IMG/VR virus record: IMGVR_UViG_3300019889_000017
Span: 1-60,897 of that record
Strand: one strand, 5' to 3'
Length of the DNA: 60,897 bases
Source of the DNA: a virus
Lineage: Duplodnaviria; Caudoviricetes
Both the position numbers and the translations under genes were made by a program. The notes beneath the pieces were generated by a model, which made no database searches, was not told the origin of the DNA, and worked only from the letters and a program-made list of their open reading frames with translations. Of the stretch, positions 7,883 through 18,784 are shown piece after piece (position 1 is the first letter of the stretch; each line of letters opens with the position of its first letter).

Positions 7883-7936
7883 CCGGACTCGGGACGTGTG
7901 CGTTCTGGATGTTGGGACGGCCCTGGTCCCGAGCCG
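7883..7936 (-). ncRNA. Solitary TIGR-like stem-loop unit
   Basis: + strand CG-TGTGCGTTC-TGGATGTTG-GGACGGCCC-TGG closed by the CCGGACTCGGGA/TCCCGAGCCGG stem; loop is degenerate. Confidence 0.6.
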
Positions 7937-7977
7937 GACGAGACGTTACCTTACAGTCATGACGTACATGTAGTCAA

Positions 7978-8033
7978 CCCAGGGCAGGGCGCTTCTGCAA
8001 TAGGTATCGAGCCGAGATTGGCCCCGCCCCGGG
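7978..8033 (-). ncRNA. Solitary TIGR-like stem-loop unit
   Basis: + strand CG-CTTCTGCAA-TAGGTATCG-AGCCGAGAT-TGG in a 12-bp stem that pairs fully with G-U only on the minus strand. Confidence 0.75.
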
Positions 8034-13069: not shown

Positions 13070-13122
13070 CCGGGGCCGGGCGGCACTGGTTTGGGTATCG
13101 AAGCCCTTCTGGCCCAGCCCCG
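13070..13122 (-). ncRNA. Solitary TIGR-like stem-loop unit
   Basis: + strand CG-GCACTGGTT-TGGGTATCG-AAGCCCTTC-TGG closed by CCGGGGC/GCCCCGG. Confidence 0.8.
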
Positions 13123-13128
13123 GAAGCT

Positions 13129-14808
13129 CTATCGGACTGCCAGCTTCCTGACCGCCCGGCGCCCGCTGATCCGGGTGATCAGGTCGGCCGCCTCACCACG
13201 GGTGCGCACCTTGCCGAGCTTGGCCTCCGGCAGGCCCTCGCGCAGCAGGCGGCCGCGCTGCTGGTCACTGACCGGCTGGCGCAGCCAGCGCGCGTCACGT
13301 TCGACAAGCTTTTGAAACGCCTTGGCACGGTCCTCACCGATCCCCATCGCCCAGTCGGCCGGGAGCTGCTCGTGCAGGATCTCCAGCTTGGCGTTCCGGT
13401 ACGCAGCCAACCGCCAGGTGTCGACCCCCGCCGGGACCATGACGACGATCTCCTGACCGGCGCCGAGGCACCAGCCGTCCTCGACGGGTAACCAGCGCAA
13501 CCGTGAAGCGCCGAACACGTCGACCTTCCCGGCCTTGCCAGCATCGCAGTTGTCATGCCGGTGGCCGTTCTCCGAGACCACCCGGGCGGGGAGGTAGCGG
13601 CGGCACAGCGAACACCGGTGCCAGGTGACCTCACACGGCTCCCCGCACGTCGGGCACGCCTGAGCTTCGGCCTCTCCGTCGAGCTTCTTCTTGCGCTTGG
13701 TGTCAAACCCCTCGTCCCCGAGGTCGACCCTCGTGACGATGTCATGGCGCCGGGTGGCGCCGACGAAGTCAACGATCAGCAGGTCGGCCTTCCCCGGGGA
13801 CAGCCGGGTCCCGCGGCCCGCCATCTGGACGTACAGGCCGTGGCGCACGGTGGCCCGTGCGATGGCTACGCAGTCGATCGACGGCTCGTCAAAGCCCTCG
13901 ATGAAGACTCCGCAGTTGACCACGCACTGGGTCTCGCCGGTCTTCAGCCGCTTCTTGGTCGCCGTCCGGAGGTCGGTCTCGGTGTCGCTCTCCACCGCCT
14001 CAGCAGCCATGCCGCGCTTGACCAGGGCGGCCGCGAGAGCGTGTGCGGTCTTGACCGTCGGTGTGAAGGCGAGAATCTTGCGGTCACCGGCGTGCTCGAT
14101 CAGCCCGTCCGCGATCTCCTCGATGGCGCCGGAGTCCTCCATCTCACGGCCGAGGTCGCCACCGGAGAGGTCGCCGTCGCCACCCTTGCGCACCCGGGTG
14201 AGGTCCATCTTGGTCTCGACCACCACCGCCGGGAGGATCGGCACCAGGTAGCCGCCGAAGATGGCCTCCCGAATTGACATGTAAGAGACAACTTTCTCCC
14301 ACACGCCGAGCGTCTTCCCCTCCCGCTCCGGAGTGGCGGTGAAGCCGACCGCCAGAGGGCCGTGCGGGTGGAATGCGCCGAGCCCCTTCAGGAACTTCGT
14401 CCAGCTCGGCGATGGTGCGTGGTGGGCTTCGTCCACGATGATCGTCCCGAACGGCCGGCGCCCGGCCGACTCGACCAGCCGCCGGAGCCGTTCGTCGCGG
14501 TGCGCGGTAGGGATGGAGGCCACCACGCAGTCCGCGTCCACCTCGTCCCGCTCCGCCTTGACGATGCCGGTCGAGAGGTGTGGCGCCTGCCAGTCCAGTT
14601 TCTCGATGAACTGGTCGGCCAGCTCTTCGCGGTGCACACCGACGATCGTCCGGCCGCGGTCGGCGCGCCGGGTGGCGGCCGCGCCCATCACCACGCCCTT
14701 TCCGGTGCCGGTCGGGTGGACCACCAGGGGGCGGCGAACACCCTCGCGCTCGGCCGTCTCGATGGCGTCCAGAGCCTTGACCTGGTAGTCGCGGAGCTGG
14801 ATGTCCAT
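13129..14808 (-). CDS. SF2 (DEAH) helicase with Zn-ribbon
   Basis: LRDYQ, PTGTGK, DEAHH, TATP, EGFDEP, QMAGRGTR motifs; CPTC...CSLC. Confidence 0.92.
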   Translation of the reverse strand: MDIQLRDYQVKALDAIETAEREGVRRPLVVHPTGTGKGVVMGAAATRRADRGRTIVGVHREELADQFIEKLDWQAPHLSTGIVKAERDEVDADCVVASIPTAHRDERLRRLVESAGRRPFGTIIVDEAHHAPSPSWTKFLKGLGAFHPHGPLAVGFTATPEREGKTLGVWEKVVSYMSIREAIFGGYLVPILPAVVVETKMDLTRVRKGGDGDLSGGDLGREMEDSGAIEEIADGLIEHAGDRKILAFTPTVKTAHALAAALVKRGMAAEAVESDTETDLRTATKKRLKTGETQCVVNCGVFIEGFDEPSIDCVAIARATVRHGLYVQMAGRGTRLSPGKADLLIVDFVGATRRHDIVTRVDLGDEGFDTKRKKKLDGEAEAQACPTCGEPCEVTWHRCSLCRRYLPARVVSENGHRHDNCDAGKAGKVDVFGASRLRWLPVEDGWCLGAGQEIVVMVPAGVDTWRLAAYRNAKLEILHEQLPADWAMGIGEDRAKAFQKLVERDARWLRQPVSDQQRGRLLREGLPEAKLGKVRTRGEAADLITRISGRRAVRKLAVR

Positions 14809-15200
14809 CAGTGCCCTCTCTGCACGTTGGCGCTGAACCGCTTATACGACCGACCGTGTGTCGTGTGGCCCAGACGGTCGATCGTGGCCTTTCCGTCGAA
14901 CCGGACCTGGAGCCGGTCCCCGATCAGGGCCGCGCCCTGGGTCAGCGCGTGCTGGAGTCCGGGGGCGTAGGCCATCACGCGGACTCGTCTGGTCCCGCCT
15001 CGCCACAGGTCCACGAACGGAACCGGTCCGAACTCGGTTGAGACCTCACCCTGGCGGAGCACCACCCCTCTGATCGTCGCGCCTTCGACGGTCGGATTCC
15101 AGGTGGCCGCCGGGTCGCCCTCGGTCAGTGCGCGGACGGCACACATCAGGCAGTCCGCCTCGTGGTCCTGGGCTGCCGTGTCGTGCTTCTCTGTCGTCAT
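14808..15200 (-). CDS. Putative OB-fold ssDNA-binding protein (paralog of 18791-19243)
   Basis: Aligns by eye with 18791-19243 (G..I.G.V...GE; GDR..V.F.G; G..Y..F...V); leaderless behind the promoter at 15208-15236. Confidence 0.5.
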   Translation of the reverse strand: MTTEKHDTAAQDHEADCLMCAVRALTEGDPAATWNPTVEGATIRGVVLRQGEVSTEFGPVPFVDLWRGGTRRVRVMAYAPGLQHALTQGAALIGDRLQVRFDGKATIDRLGHTTHGRSYKRFSANVQRGH

Positions 15201-15219
15201 GCCGGAAACCTTACTGTCA

Positions 15220-15435
15220 TCACTGCAAGGTGTCAACGTGCGGTACGCACGGAACGAATGTGCAGCCACCGCCGCACGTGCCCATGTCGTGGGCCTCGCG
15301 CATCCGATCGACCCACTCCCGCAACCGACGGTCATCGTCGGTCATCCGCTGGTCAGCCTCCTGCAACCGAATCCGGCGCTGAGCCAGGTACGTACGTGAG
15401 AGCCGGTTGTAGGCCCAGTCGGGGAGCCGGATCAC
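15220..15435 (-). CDS. Hypothetical protein
   Basis: GTGA overlap with the upstream gene. Confidence 0.5.
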   Translation of the reverse strand: MIRLPDWAYNRLSRTYLAQRRIRLQEADQRMTDDDRRLREWVDRMREAHDMGTCGGGCTFVPCVPHVDTLQ

Positions 15436-15734
15436 TCCTGCTCCCCGGTCTTGGTGCTATCGGCCCACAGTCGCGGCGGCCACAGGTACTCCGCCTCGGT
15501 CAGGATCTTGACCCATTCGACCAATCGGCCGTCCCGTTCCAGCCAGCGCTCGACAGCCAGCCACCCGGCGGCGATCGGCACCCGGCCGCTACCGGTCACG
15601 TACCACAGGCCGCCCGCCTTCAGCATCGCGTAGGTGAAGGCGCGGCTGTGGCTCATCCCCGAGTAGCTGATACCGAACAGCAGCACCGTGTCGTCATCGA
15701 TCTTCTTGCTGTCGAAACCGAACTTCATCGTCAT
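15432..15734 (-). CDS. Hypothetical protein
   Basis: 'FTYAMLKAGGLWYVTG' motif, AGAAGG RBS. Confidence 0.6.
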   Translation of the reverse strand: MTMKFGFDSKKIDDDTVLLFGISYSGMSHSRAFTYAMLKAGGLWYVTGSGRVPIAAGWLAVERWLERDGRLVEWVKILTEAEYLWPPRLWADSTKTGEQE

Positions 15735-15843
15735 GCCTTCTATGTTAGCAGTGAGAACCCCGGACCGGGCGCGAAGATGATGGGTGACATTCCTCGGTCC
15801 TGGCGAGTTGACACTTCACAGTCAAGCCTGTTAAGCTTCTCCC

Positions 15844-16023
15844 ATGAAGAAGCGAGCGACACCGAAGCCCCTCTCCCCCGCCCAGATCAAGGCACTGACC
15901 AAGCTGGCGGACGGCGGTAGCAGTAACCAGATGCGCCGCGGCACCAACGACGCTCTCCACGACATGGGCCTCATGGAGCGGGGCCAGATCACCGCCGCTG
16001 GCCTCGCAGCCATCAGCCGCTGA
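15844..16023 (+). CDS. Small hypothetical protein, possible winged helix (59 aa)
   Basis: Leaderless after the promoter at 15808-15837; 'LSPAQIKAL...GLMERGQITAAGLAAI'; hairpin at 16031-16055. Confidence 0.55.
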   Translation: MKKRATPKPLSPAQIKALTKLADGGSSNQMRRGTNDALHDMGLMERGQITAAGLAAISR

Positions 16024-16128
16024 ACGAGACAGGCCCCGGGGAAACCCCGGGGCCTAGCGGTTGACACTTCACAGTCAAGCCTGTAACGTCGTATCCGTCA
16101 GCAGGGCCACACCGAGGAGGCACCGATC

Positions 16129-16356
16129 ATGATCGCTCACATCGCCGGTTACCAGATCAACGTCTACGCCGACGCAGATGCACTCCGCACCAACCGTGAG
16201 CCGGTCGAATCGATGCCCTGTGACGCCAAGGTCGGCGGGACCCGGAGCGCGGCGGTTCAGCTCATGTCCCACGGATACCTTCCCACCTCGGGGTTCGACT
16301 TCATACCGTGTGCGGTTCCGAACACCTGGACCATCGAAGTCATCAAGGTCGCCTGA
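16129..16356 (+). CDS. Small hypothetical protein
   Basis: GAGGAGG RBS, promoter at 16061-16089, GC hairpin downstream. Confidence 0.6.
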   Translation: MIAHIAGYQINVYADADALRTNREPVESMPCDAKVGGTRSAAVQLMSHGYLPTSGFDFIPCAVPNTWTIEVIKVA

Positions 16357-16386: not shown

Positions 16387-16644
16387 GGGGGCCGCCACGG
16401 TGTTCACTTGCTGGGTACCAGAGAAGGTGTTGACCGTGGAGTGTGGCCCCCGAGCTGGGTGGGCCGCCATTGGGTAGCGAGACGAATATGACCCAGCTCG
16501 GGGAGTCTATGAAGTTGAGCCTCCGGTCCGCGGTGGTTCGTGTATGGGTACCGAAGCGACCTTGACCGCGACCCGGAGGGGTGTGAGCCCCGAGCTGGGT
16601 GTGCGGCAAATGGGTATCGAGCGATCGATGACCCCAGCTCGGGG
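16387..16644 (-). ncRNA. TIGR-like stem-loop array, 4 units, downstream of the Tas gene
   Basis: Four hairpins, each enclosing TG-N9-TGGGTAHC(G/A)-N9(10)-TGA on the + strand; stem CCCCGAGCTGGG used twice. Confidence 0.85.
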
Positions 16645-16650
16645 AGTCTC

Positions 16651-17490
16651 CTAGTCGTTCGCAGCGTGCCAGTCCCGGGCCGCGATCCAGAGATCCTTCA
16701 GCACGGTCTTGCTGACGATCCTCAGCGCGTCGGCGTGCTGGTGGCCCGGCCGCCACGGGGCGGTGATCAGCTCCGTCTTACCGGCGCCGTTGCACTGCGG
16801 GCACGGCCGGTCGTGGACCTTCTCCGCGGTCACCGCCCGGCGCTTGTCGTAGACCTCGCGGTACGGGGAGCGAGCCTGCTTGACGCAACTCTCCGAGATC
16901 AGGTAGGCGCGCGTCTTGGCGTCCGTCGACCAGTTCGACTTCTGGCCCTTCCTGCGCCGGGCGGCACCCCGAATGCTGGCATTCTGGGTGTCGAGCTCTA
17001 TTTGACCCGAGATGCCGCCCGGCTGTTCATCCCCGCCGATGCTCCGACCTTGAGCACCGCTAGGTGTATGAACGACGGGGATCGTGTGCAGGCCACTGTA
17101 GGCCCAGAGTTCACTGACGGTGCGCGGCCGGTCGTGGAGGATGTTCCAGTACGGGTCGCCGATGGTGGCCAGTAGGCGCGCCAGCTGCTTCTCCCCGATC
17201 CCGATCTGTTCCTTCTGCCACGGCCCCAGCGGGTGCTTCCGCATCGCTCGCTGAAGGCCGAGGATGACGGCGTGCTCCAGTTTGGCGAGGTTCTCCCCGG
17301 CAACGCGGATGGCCGCGACGTCGGGGTCGTCCGGCGACAGGCCCATCCCCCGCATCTCGTCGTCCGAGTCGACTTCGGACCGGGTGGCCTGCCGGAACCG
17401 GTTGTCCGTGGCCTTGCGTAGCTCCTCCAGACCGTCGAGCTGGGCGGCCAGCAGGAAGATCGCGGTGTTGCCGCGCAACATCTCACTCAT
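16651..17490 (-). CDS. tasA: TasA-like Nop/IS110-domain RNA-binding protein, no nuclease domain
   Basis: Coiled-coil N-terminus, GIGEKQLARLLATIGD, SELWAYSGL, RRKGQKSNWS, PYREVYDKRR, HADALRIVSKTVLKDLW; no RuvC or HNH; flanked by dual-spacer arrays. Confidence 0.8.
   Translation of the reverse strand: MSEMLRGNTAIFLLAAQLDGLEELRKATDNRFRQATRSEVDSDDEMRGMGLSPDDPDVAAIRVAGENLAKLEHAVILGLQRAMRKHPLGPWQKEQIGIGEKQLARLLATIGDPYWNILHDRPRTVSELWAYSGLHTIPVVHTPSGAQGRSIGGDEQPGGISGQIELDTQNASIRGAARRRKGQKSNWSTDAKTRAYLISESCVKQARSPYREVYDKRRAVTAEKVHDRPCPQCNGAGKTELITAPWRPGHQHADALRIVSKTVLKDLWIAARDWHAAND
16959..17082 (-). ncRNA. Two TIGR-like units embedded in-frame in tasA
   Basis: TG-CTGGCATTC-TGGGTGTCG-AGCTCTATT-TGA and TG-CTCCGACCT-TGAGCACCG-CTAGGTGTA-TGA, each in a 10-13 bp stem. 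Confidence 0.75.
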
Positions 17491-18055
17491 CGCACAGCAC
17501 CTCTTCGACCTGCTCATCGGAGAGGTCGGCGACGACCTCGACGTGGTGTTGCTGCATCACCTTGACCAGCTTGCGGTACTTGCGCGCCGTGGTGGCGTTG
17601 GCCTCGGACTGCCGGTCCGACTCGGCCGCGGCGAACTCCAGGTCCGCAATCGTGCACCGCTCGATGTCACGGTACGTCTTGTTGCCCAGCCAGAGGGACA
17701 GCCGGACGCGGTGCTTCCGGAACAACGCGACGCGGGAGTTCCGGACGTTGCCGCCACCGGGGAGGACGCCGGCTGATTGGGCAGCGATGCGGGTTTGGTC
17801 CTCCCCGGTGACGGTGCTTTGACCCGGCTCGATGGTGTCCCTCTGGGTATCGGCTGCCAGTTGATCGGGCCGGGAGTCCTTGCGCGGGACGGTGGCCAGT
17901 TCCCGGCGGACCGTCTCGGTCAGCGCCTGGCGGTAGGCCTCGCTCGTTGCGGCCTTGGGCGTGCGTTCGAAGATCAGGTTGGCCAGGGTGTCCAGGTTCT
18001 CCTCGGTGGTGTCCGTGAGGATCGCCCGGATGTGCTGGCGGAGGTCGAATTTCAT
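17483..18055 (-). CDS. Tas-associated hypothetical protein (190 aa)
   Basis: MKFDLRQH start with GGAGAGG RBS; ATGAGTGA overlap with tasA. Confidence 0.75.
   Translation of the reverse strand: MKFDLRQHIRAILTDTTEENLDTLANLIFERTPKAATSEAYRQALTETVRRELATVPRKDSRPDQLAADTQRDTIEPGQSTVTGEDQTRIAAQSAGVLPGGGNVRNSRVALFRKHRVRLSLWLGNKTYRDIERCTIADLEFAAAESDRQSEANATTARKYRKLVKVMQQHHVEVVADLSDEQVEEVLCDE
17757..17874 (-). ncRNA. Two TIGR-like units embedded in-frame in the partner gene
   Basis: CG-CCGGCTGAT-TGGGCAGCG-ATGCGGGTT-TGG and TG-GTGTCCCTC-TGGGTATCG-GCTGCCAGT-TGA in 10-bp stems. Confidence 0.75.
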
Positions 18056-18087
18056 GGGTGTTCGGTTCCTCTCCGTTGGTCCATGGG

Positions 18088-18784
18088 CCGGTACGAATGG
18101 CGACGCTATGGGTATCGTATGGGCTGTGATTCGTACCGGGTCAAGAACAGACGGTGCGCTGCATTTGGGTATCGGCGGTGTATTGACCGTCTGCTCATGA
18201 CCCGGTACGAATGTAGAGTGGTTGGGTATCGGTGGGACTTTGATTCGTACCGGTTCAAGAACAGACGGTGTGCCGAGCTTGGGTATCAGCGAACCTGTGA
18301 CCATCTGCTCATGATCCGGTACGAATGTAGGAAACATGGGTATCGGACCCGCTTTGATTCGTACCGGTTCAAGAACAGACGGTGGGACGACTTTGGATAT
18401 CGGGAGGACTATGACCGTCTGCTCATGACCCGGTACGAATGGTGTCCCCATGGGTATCGGATCCGCTTTGATTCGTACCGGTTCAAGAACAGACGGTGCT
18501 TTGCCTTTGGGTATCGGAGAACCTTTAAACCGTCTGCTCATGACCTGGTACGAATGCGGGGAGCTTGGGTATCGAATCTTCACTGATTCGTACCGGCTCA
18601 TGAGCAGACGGTGCGTTCCTTATGGTTGACGGTGTCACCTTGACCGTCTGCTCATTGACCGATGTGAATGATTGATCCGTGGGTATCGCCGATACAATGA
18701 TTCACACCAGTGAATGAACAGACGGGGTTCCCCGGGGCGGTGATCGAACTCTGGATATCGCCACCATCTTGACCGCCCCGGGGA
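18088..18784 (-). ncRNA. Main TIGR-like stem-loop array, 12 units
   Basis: 57-bp units (114-bp period): TG-N9-TGGGTATCG-N9-TGA with unique 9-mers, alternating stems CCGGTACGAA and CAGACGG. Confidence 0.9.

Follow-up and report, generated by a model that had tools for sequence, protein, structure and literature searches.

The TIGR-Tas systems, their stem-loop arrays and the TasA protein have been described in Faure et al. 2025 (PMC12045711), where, in the passages on these arrays, the units are reported to have variable palindromic stems, two spacers of 8-12 nucleotides (nt) and sometimes a conserved intervening sequence, and where TasA is said to lack clear associations with other proteins, ParB-like genes being mentioned separately. 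According to the relevant sections of a later preprint (Xu et al. 2026, 10.64898/2026.09.09.750476), TasA with a tigRNA alone represses transcription, and stem-loop tigRNAs can be embedded in-frame in tas coding sequences. Here we report on a TIGR-TasA locus in the virus record IMGVR_UViG_3300019889_000017, which was analysed over its whole length (a complete record of 60,897 bp, hereafter the window), and on the open reading frame (ORF) of 190 codons next to its tasA gene, ORF190. Our analysis showed that ORF190 is a dedicated and conserved partner gene, located upstream of tasA in a clade of stem-loop TIGR-TasA systems from actinobacteria and actinophages, and that it carries guide units within its own codons.

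When compared with the stem-loop TIGR-TasA systems PlTasA, BlTasA and MbTasA, as they are portrayed in the parts of the two reports devoted to them (PMC12045711, 10.64898/2026.09.09.750476), the locus in the window was found to be alike in having a nuclease-less Nop-domain Tas protein, arrays both upstream and downstream of tas, and units whose variable palindromic stems enclose two 9-nt spacers around a conserved central motif. It differs in that the window's clade has a conserved partner protein, whereas none is described in those parts, and in that no consistent CUU motif was seen by eye at the stem base of the window units. A small gene within a tasA operon, with arrays upstream, downstream and between the genes, is also a property of the tasParB-tasA operons in the passages of Faure et al. 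2025 that treat them. However, TasParB is reported there to be ParB-like by HHpred and to go with dual-repeat arrays, whereas no ParB family was found among 82 members of the family of ORF190, phrog_4604, and the arrays here are of the stem-loop type. The four supplementary text files of that paper (PMC12045711) contain neither ParB nor phage terms. The embedded guides resemble the intragenic tigRNAs in tas of Xu et al., which are likewise in-frame, lie in a disordered segment and leave the reading frame intact, and the tasA gene of the window has one of these as well; the difference is that in the window ORF190, a neighbour that is not a tas gene, is also a host, whereas the passages of the preprint on this subject mention the tas coding region only. 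Thus TIGR-Tas, repression by TasA and guides in tas are known, while the phrog_4604 partner and the guides inside a non-tas gene appear to be new; neither was found in print on TIGR-Tas, with the possibility that the partner stands unlabelled in supplementary figures. TIGR-Tas systems were first described in 2025, and the partner gene offers a concrete handle on guide maturation and on repression.

The assignment to TIGR-Tas is based on an array in which palindromic stems enclose two short spacers round a loop motif, and on a Tas protein of 279 amino acids (aa) with a Nop-type RNA-binding domain. This protein matched the NCBIfam model NF052498.1 (TIGR_Tas_endo, 'TIGR-Tas system RNA-guided endonuclease') at E = 1.1e-62 with 211.8 bits, the cut-off being 100. 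In a Foldseek search with its AlphaFold2 model (predicted local distance difference test, pLDDT, 80.9), cryo-electron microscopy chains of TasH and TasR were matched at E values of about 1e-5 with template modelling scores of 0.54-0.71, and they ranked ahead of the IS621 recombinase and Nop5. Because it has no extra nuclease domain, the 279-aa Tas protein is a TasA. Its start at 17490 is supported by the N-termini of homologs (MSD.../MSE...) over an upstream ATG at 17517.

Gene neighbourhoods linked ORF190 to TasA. Twenty bacterial loci, mostly from Actinomycetota, were fetched with TasA patterns alone and were then searched with hidden Markov models (HMMs) made from our own alignments. At all of them, the ORF immediately upstream of Tas, on its strand, belonged to the phrog_4604 family, and the partner HMM (alignment A2) gave E values from 1e-21 to 1e-52 at 19 loci and 1.9e-6 at the other one (L026). 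In the reverse search, 401 genomes from the family of genome G001 were sampled, and three of them contained phrog_4604, in each case (3/3) at those same TasA loci. A phylum-wide sample contained it in one of 401 genomes, the centre genome alone, which says nothing on co-occurrence; the gene is therefore rare in bacteria. The pair of partner and Tas was also found in six phage lineages: Mycobacterium phages Pinto (gp71/gp70) and Omega (gp22/gp21), Gordonia phage BENtherdunthat (gp058/gp059), prophiFSAT01-1 (gp25/gp27), Arthrobacter phage Talia1610 (gp253/gp255) and the contig L003. In addition, 38 Mycobacterium phage accessions were present in both tblastn lists, and in each of them TasA was matched about 300-360 nt downstream of the partner; these cluster-A accessions are near-identical and were counted as one lineage. 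The first-pass annotation of the window, which was made from the sequence alone, had proposed that ORF190 is a Tas partner and that its co-occurrence with TasA should be visible in gene neighbourhoods, and this was supported by the 20 fetched loci, the family-wide matches and the phage lineages. The clade that bears the partner includes about 80 sequenced cluster-A mycobacteriophages in addition to Omega, which grow on Mycobacterium smegmatis.

The partner does not accompany every Tas protein. A word-indexed search returned 1,594 TasA homologs at E<=1e-10, and compared with this number the spread of the partner indicates that it goes with one Tas clade, not with all. At the TasH locus of Salicola phage CGphi29, no phrog_4604 member was found among the three flanking ORFs scanned. 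Within the clade, the common architecture is the partner, one to five intergenic units and tasA, the two genes being 160-510 nt apart. In the group formed by the window and the loci L001, L002, L003, L005 and L007, there is no intergenic array; the two genes overlap by 5-8 nt, and units are located in the linker of the partner. In the Omega locus (L010, record positions 14781-16309), the cassette is inverted among head and tail genes and is flanked by about 11 units, which suggests that partner, array and TasA move as one block.

ORF190 is a real protein-coding gene, as judged from its G+C fraction at third codon positions (GC3) of 0.93, its homologs, its matches to phrog_4604 and the pLDDT of 90-96 of its domains. 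The frame is open over all 190 codons without an internal stop. Its GC3 is 0.93 both in codons 1-58 and in codons 104-190 and 0.76 in the linker between them, compared with 0.88 for tasA, 0.89 for the helicase gene and 0.52 for the read-through frame of the array. Its TGA stop codon (17485-17483) is inside ATGAGTGA, in which the ATG of tasA (17490-17488) also lies; the description of a 190-aa ORF between the main array and tasA, translationally coupled to the latter, was therefore correct.

The match of ORF190 to phrog_4604 covered aa 126-181 (E = 8.9e-11). All 82 aligned relatives matched the same family, at best with 8.8e-31, and Pinto gp71 matched it over the full length at 2.7e-77; in PHROG the family is annotated as of unknown function. 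A word-indexed search gave 29 homologs of 184-208 aa with 47-62% identity, and an exhaustive HMMER search gave 72 representative clusters at E<=1e-3, the query counted. Among the 82 relatives, about eight columns are nearly invariant (M1, L45, R58, C134, T135, A143, A157 and L178), the length of the linker varies, and no Pfam family was shared by more than one member. Searches of a phage collection with ORF190 or its locus by tblastn and megablast, and of genome contigs with the partner, found nothing, and the relatives were reached via TasA and via distant family members; the distant members P0070, P0082 and P0064 as queries found no viral loci.

The AlphaFold2 model of ORF190, which was made with the 82-sequence alignment, consists of two confident domains (pLDDT 90-96) joined by a linker at aa 60-103 that is disordered (pLDDT of about 50). 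The N-terminal domain (aa 1-55) is formed by three helices and the C-terminal domain (aa 105-190), which is preceded by an arginine-rich segment (NVRNSR..R..R), by a helix, a beta-hairpin, a 34-residue helix and a short helix. The protein is mildly acidic, with an isoelectric point (pI) of 5.9 and a family median of 6.1. As had been noted at the outset for ORF190, no ParB, RuvC or HNH motif was seen: none of these families was found in Pfam for ORF190 or any of its 82 relatives. For ParB in particular, no match was found at E<=1 for ORF190 or at E<=0.01 in the relatives, and the ParB fold was absent from the structure match lists of the ORF190 model. Furthermore, ORF190 had no Tas or Nop match and no match in NCBIfam or PADLOC; by sequence, its best E value against PDB was 0.12. 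With the model, Foldseek returned nothing from PDB at E<=1e-3, VIA-align wide gave a best Z of 5.1 that involved the long helix only, and ESM Atlas gave no usable match, the N-terminal domain alone not having been searched in the fold and sequence searches. Against BFVD, the model matched only uncharacterised actinophage proteins, such as Q854P2 of Mycobacterium phage Omega. No recognisable catalytic domain or motif was therefore found by family or fold match, which does not prove that the protein is inactive.

Read on the minus strand, all units of the locus have a common layout: the first arm of a 10-19-pair stem is followed by CA, spacer A (9 nt), CGATACCCA, spacer B (9 nt) and C, and the second arm closes the unit. 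When the whole window was scanned strictly for this layout, the minus strand yielded 18 units and the plus strand yielded none, and no unit appeared on either strand of 100 first-order Markov shuffles of the window; looser scans added three further units (18-21 in total), all on the strand of tas. Two units with the anatomy of the array units are embedded in ORF190. It had been proposed that two in-frame units at 17757-17874 encode DQLAADTQRDTI and DQTRIAAQSAGV in a linker between two helical regions, and our scans agreed with this on the units and their peptides, with refined boundaries (Table 1): unit 1 encodes the former and unit 2 the latter, and both lie in-frame at residues of about 62-101, inside the low-pLDDT segment (60-103) between the confident domains. 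In translation, each unit reads CAN, then three codons of spacer, GAT ACC CAN and again three codons of spacer, and the embedded units, including that of tasA, are all read in the same frame. Since a 9-nt spacer corresponds to three codons and the period of 57-60 nt to 19-20 codons, both the units and the replacement of their spacers are neutral to the frame. The tasA unit is accompanied by a second, degenerate one at about 17027-17085 on the minus strand (..VHTPSGAQGRSI..); both are located within residues 133-186 of TasA, which are disordered in AlphaFold2 (pLDDT <50), and most TasA homologs of the clade have two such embedded units.

Two embedded units were also found in the ORF190 homologs of L001, L002, L005 and L007, at least one in that of L003 and one in that of L020. 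At the protein level, the in-frame signature [QH]xxxD[TA][QH] occurred at 43 sites in 32 of 82 family representatives, while shuffles would be expected to give 0.86, the count being one of protein sequences, with the DNA of those representatives outside the comparison. Judging from this signature, guide units inside the partner gene are widespread in the family. The hypervariable stretches of the phrog_4604 proteins are explained by the embedded units. The guides in the codons of a second gene would extend what has been described for tas to a general principle, in which frame-neutral units colonise disordered linkers. Guides in the transcripts of protein-coding genes have a eukaryotic counterpart in the small nucleolar RNA host genes, in which guides of the box C/D type are located in introns. 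In contrast, the guides in the window lie in translated codons, so that the sequences of guide and protein are coupled.

In an alignment of six DNA sequences, standard pairs account for 95.2% of the cells in the two helices, and both bases have changed at 10 of 28 pairs, with covariation in helix 1 and in helix 2. None of 500 shuffles reached the observed values, and partners that had been slid along the alignment paired at 54% or less. The RNA fold of the region consists of two hairpins with a z-score of -3.6. The spacer blocks behave differently: in a 30-protein alignment, residues 66-68, 72-74, 88-90 and 94-96 had an entropy of 3.1-3.3 bits, compared with 0.76 and 0.90 bits for the domains and 1.05 and about 1.35 for the centre codons. 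For instance, L002 and L005 are 95% identical in the DNA of their domains (247/261 and 156/165) and agree in only 16 of 36 spacer bases (44%); such near-identical flanks with unrelated spacers in two relatives amount to a natural experiment on spacer turnover. Over the 143 units from all loci, practically every spacer pair occurs once only, apart from those shared by two near-identical prophages of one metagenome-assembled genome. These comparisons showed that the embedded stems in the window's clade are kept by compensatory changes and that the spacers turn over freely.

Table 1. Positions of the features of the TIGR-Tas locus in the window
Feature	Position	Strand	Details
Main stem-loop TIGR array	18088..18784	-	about 12 units; repeat search, inverted repeats, unit scans
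ORF190, TasA partner gene (phrog_4604 family)	17483..18055	-	190 aa
Embedded tigRNA unit 1 (in ORF190)	17823..17874	-	stem CCCGGCCCGAT/ATCGAGCCGGG, spacer A ACTGGCAGC, centre CGATACCCA, spacer B GAGGGACAC; encodes ..PDQLAADTQRDTIEPG..
Embedded tigRNA unit 2 (in ORF190)	17751..17814	-	17-bp stem, degenerate centre CGCTGCCCA; encodes ..TGEDQTRIAAQSAGVLPGG..
ATGAGTGA, overlap of tasA start codon and ORF190 stop codon	17483..17490	-	
tasA, nuclease-less TIGR-associated Nop-domain protein	16651..17490	-	279 aa
tigRNA unit embedded in tasA	16956..17023	-	encodes ..GQIELDTQNASI..; unit scans
Three units 3' of tasA	16447..16644	-	16588-16644, 16520-16579 and 16447-16504; unit scans

We consider it probable, at a level of roughly 0.6, that the ORF190 protein is dedicated to TasA and serves, without catalysis of its own, as an adaptor or assembly subunit, either of the particle of TasA and tigRNA or of the precursor RNA, and that its mRNA doubles as a guide precursor. 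The partner would thus be a non-enzymatic subunit and not a nuclease, a proposal made because Pfam, NCBIfam and PADLOC assigned it to no family, because neither its sequence nor its fold found a match in PDB, and because its pI is 5.9. The transcript of ORF190 and tasA would have two exclusive fates, translation or cutting. Upon translation, TasA would be coupled to ORF190 through ATGAGTGA; upon cutting, the embedded guides would be released and the halves coding for the two domains would be separated, so that the dose of protein would be linked to the making of guides. The stretches of hypervariable peptide would then be a tolerated by-product of guide diversification. A comparable division of labour is found in the box C/D small ribonucleoprotein, where the Nop-domain protein Nop5 works with the small partners L7Ae and fibrillarin on a dual-guide RNA. 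Nop5 structures were among the fold matches of TasA; however, the partner model had no match to the folds of L7Ae or fibrillarin in the lists searched, and no methyltransferase motif was found.

Several observations weigh against a role of this kind. The sampled loci are not phylogenetically independent, and no fused partner-TasA protein was found among the longer proteins, although this is weak evidence. The embedding cannot be essential to the role of the protein, since 50 of 82 family members are without the signature, and unit 2 of the window, with its degenerate centre, may be decaying. Furthermore, TasA proteins of other clades are reported, in the parts of the preprint on repression (Xu et al. 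2026, 10.64898/2026.09.09.750476), to repress in E. coli without a partner, and the partner is therefore not universally required. It is only tentatively that we would go further and regard phrog_4604 as an obligatory third component of actinobacterial stem-loop TIGR-TasA, which matures or loads the guides or turns DNA binding into an outcome, with the embedding serving as a protein-or-guide circuit. If this were true, a segment of the partner would be rewritten whenever a spacer is replaced, and each transcript would yield either proteins or guides.

Alternatively, and rather unlikely in our view, the partner might be a factor for tigRNA maturation or loading, which would recognise the stem-loop precursor and either recruit or position a host RNase or chaperone the loading of guides onto TasA. 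It would then stand in for the Y/H loop for self-processing, which is missing from stem-loop Tas proteins. This explanation is attractive because the preprint (Xu et al. 2026, 10.64898/2026.09.09.750476) reports, where it deals with processing, that the stem-loop Tas proteins are without that loop and that the mechanism of maturation is unknown. It would also agree with the partner gene always adjoining arrays, with the array often lying between partner and tasA, and with the arginine-rich segment before the C-terminal domain. However, the protein is acidic overall and no RNA-binding or nuclease fold was found; moreover, in the corresponding passages of the preprint, the context that helps processing is downstream of tasA, and the stem-loop loci had been expressed in E. 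coli together with their native loci, in constructs that may or may not include a partner homolog.

A regulatory function has a still smaller chance of being correct. As an antagonist of TasA or a controller of its dosage, or as a factor for transcription of the operon, the partner could limit self-targeting or time the action of TasA during infection. A small, acidic protein of two domains, with a long helix that could dimerise, and the translational coupling to tasA in the window's clade would suit such a regulator, and some annotators have placed DNA-binding labels on neighbouring genes, but the label sits on TasA itself. Neither a helix-turn-helix nor another DNA-binding family was detected in the 82 members, no known anti-defence or defence family was found, and a structural partner would account at least equally well for the strict 1:1 synteny that is seen in very different phage contexts.

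The first-pass annotation had favoured an accessory or effector subunit that supplies the activity TasA lacks. The part of this claim that concerns a Tas partner was supported, since the gene is upstream of Tas at every locus examined, while the part that concerns the missing activity was not, as no enzymatic family or fold was found. A catalytic effector that gives the nuclease-less TasA an enzymatic activity is thus very improbable. It is true that TasA has no nuclease domain, that the partner is constant and that a Cys-Thr pair (C134, T135) and Arg58 are nearly invariant. However, the invariant residues are very few and include no acidic or His catalytic constellation, the folded parts comprise only about 145 residues, the protein is mildly acidic, and the TasA ribonucleoproteins suffice for repression according to the passages of Xu et al. 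concerned with it. Finally, it is hardly credible that the partner has no functional relation to tasA and only travels along in a mobile cassette of two genes, with fragments of the array having landed as embedded units in a tolerant linker: the cassette is indeed found in unrelated contexts (in Omega inverted in structural genes, elsewhere beside replication or immunity genes), and the linker is disordered and of variable length, but neither gene order nor strand changes across the 20 fetched loci (20 of 20) and six phage lineages, with protein identities of 25-60%, which is hard to maintain without a functional link, and the embedded stems are under compensatory selection.

The whole TIGR-Tas locus runs on the minus strand from 18784 down to 16447. 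In the main array, two stem types alternate, with a unit period of 57 nt (a double repeat of 114 nt) and 30 nt between the arms of the inverted repeats. Over the 143 units, there are 87 G-U pairs in the stems when they are read on the tas strand, and these would be A-C mismatches on the opposite strand, which gives indirect support for the tas strand being the RNA strand of the units. An Rfam search and scans for promoters and terminators gave no usable result.

The period of 57 nt (19 codons) without stops causes ORF finders to call a 372-aa ORF (18601..17483, minus strand) that runs through five repeats into ORF190. This read-through ORF was rejected as a real gene on account of the GC3 of 0.52 in its array part, and its start was rejected because every homolog begins at the Met of 18055. 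A comparable case is the 'transposase' gp059 of BENtherdunthat (424 aa; L008, 2554-3828), in which the N-terminus is array read-through and the Tas match begins at residue 151. The annotations of actinophage TasA vary among 'transposase', 'DNA binding domain protein', 'helix-turn-helix DNA binding domain protein' and hypothetical, and the label of PHROG phrog_4285 is 'transposase'. For annotation, the locus explains both the spurious long N-termini of such 'transposases' and the 'transposase' and 'DNA binding' labels on actinophage TasA genes.

Guides seem to be scattered through the genome in the window. Solitary tigRNA-like units were found on the minus strand far from the tas locus, at 13070-13123, 7978-8033 and 7883-7938, with the centres CGATACCCA, CGATACCTA and CAACATCCA, in intergenic positions within an early operon on the same strand. 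When 20 guides were searched against the 60.9-kb genome for 18-bp sites (spacer A followed by the reverse complement of B, rcB, or rcB followed by A, with gaps of 0-2), three matches at <=2 mismatches were obtained, one of which was the unit itself; the other two were judged, without a shuffle control, to be no more than chance, and no target is proposed. For the tasA-embedded guide, an 18-bp site of the rcB+A form lies at 13125-13143, right next to the solitary unit of 13070-13123; it has two mismatches, with a gap of 1 nt, and was judged to be at chance level, likewise without a shuffle control. Just downstream of the TIGR locus, a promoter-like sequence, GTTGACACTTCACAGTCAAGCCTGT, is repeated on the plus strand at about 15811-15835 and 16062-16086, and the two copies precede small plus-strand ORFs (15844-16023 and 16129-16356) that are wedged in the minus-strand operon.

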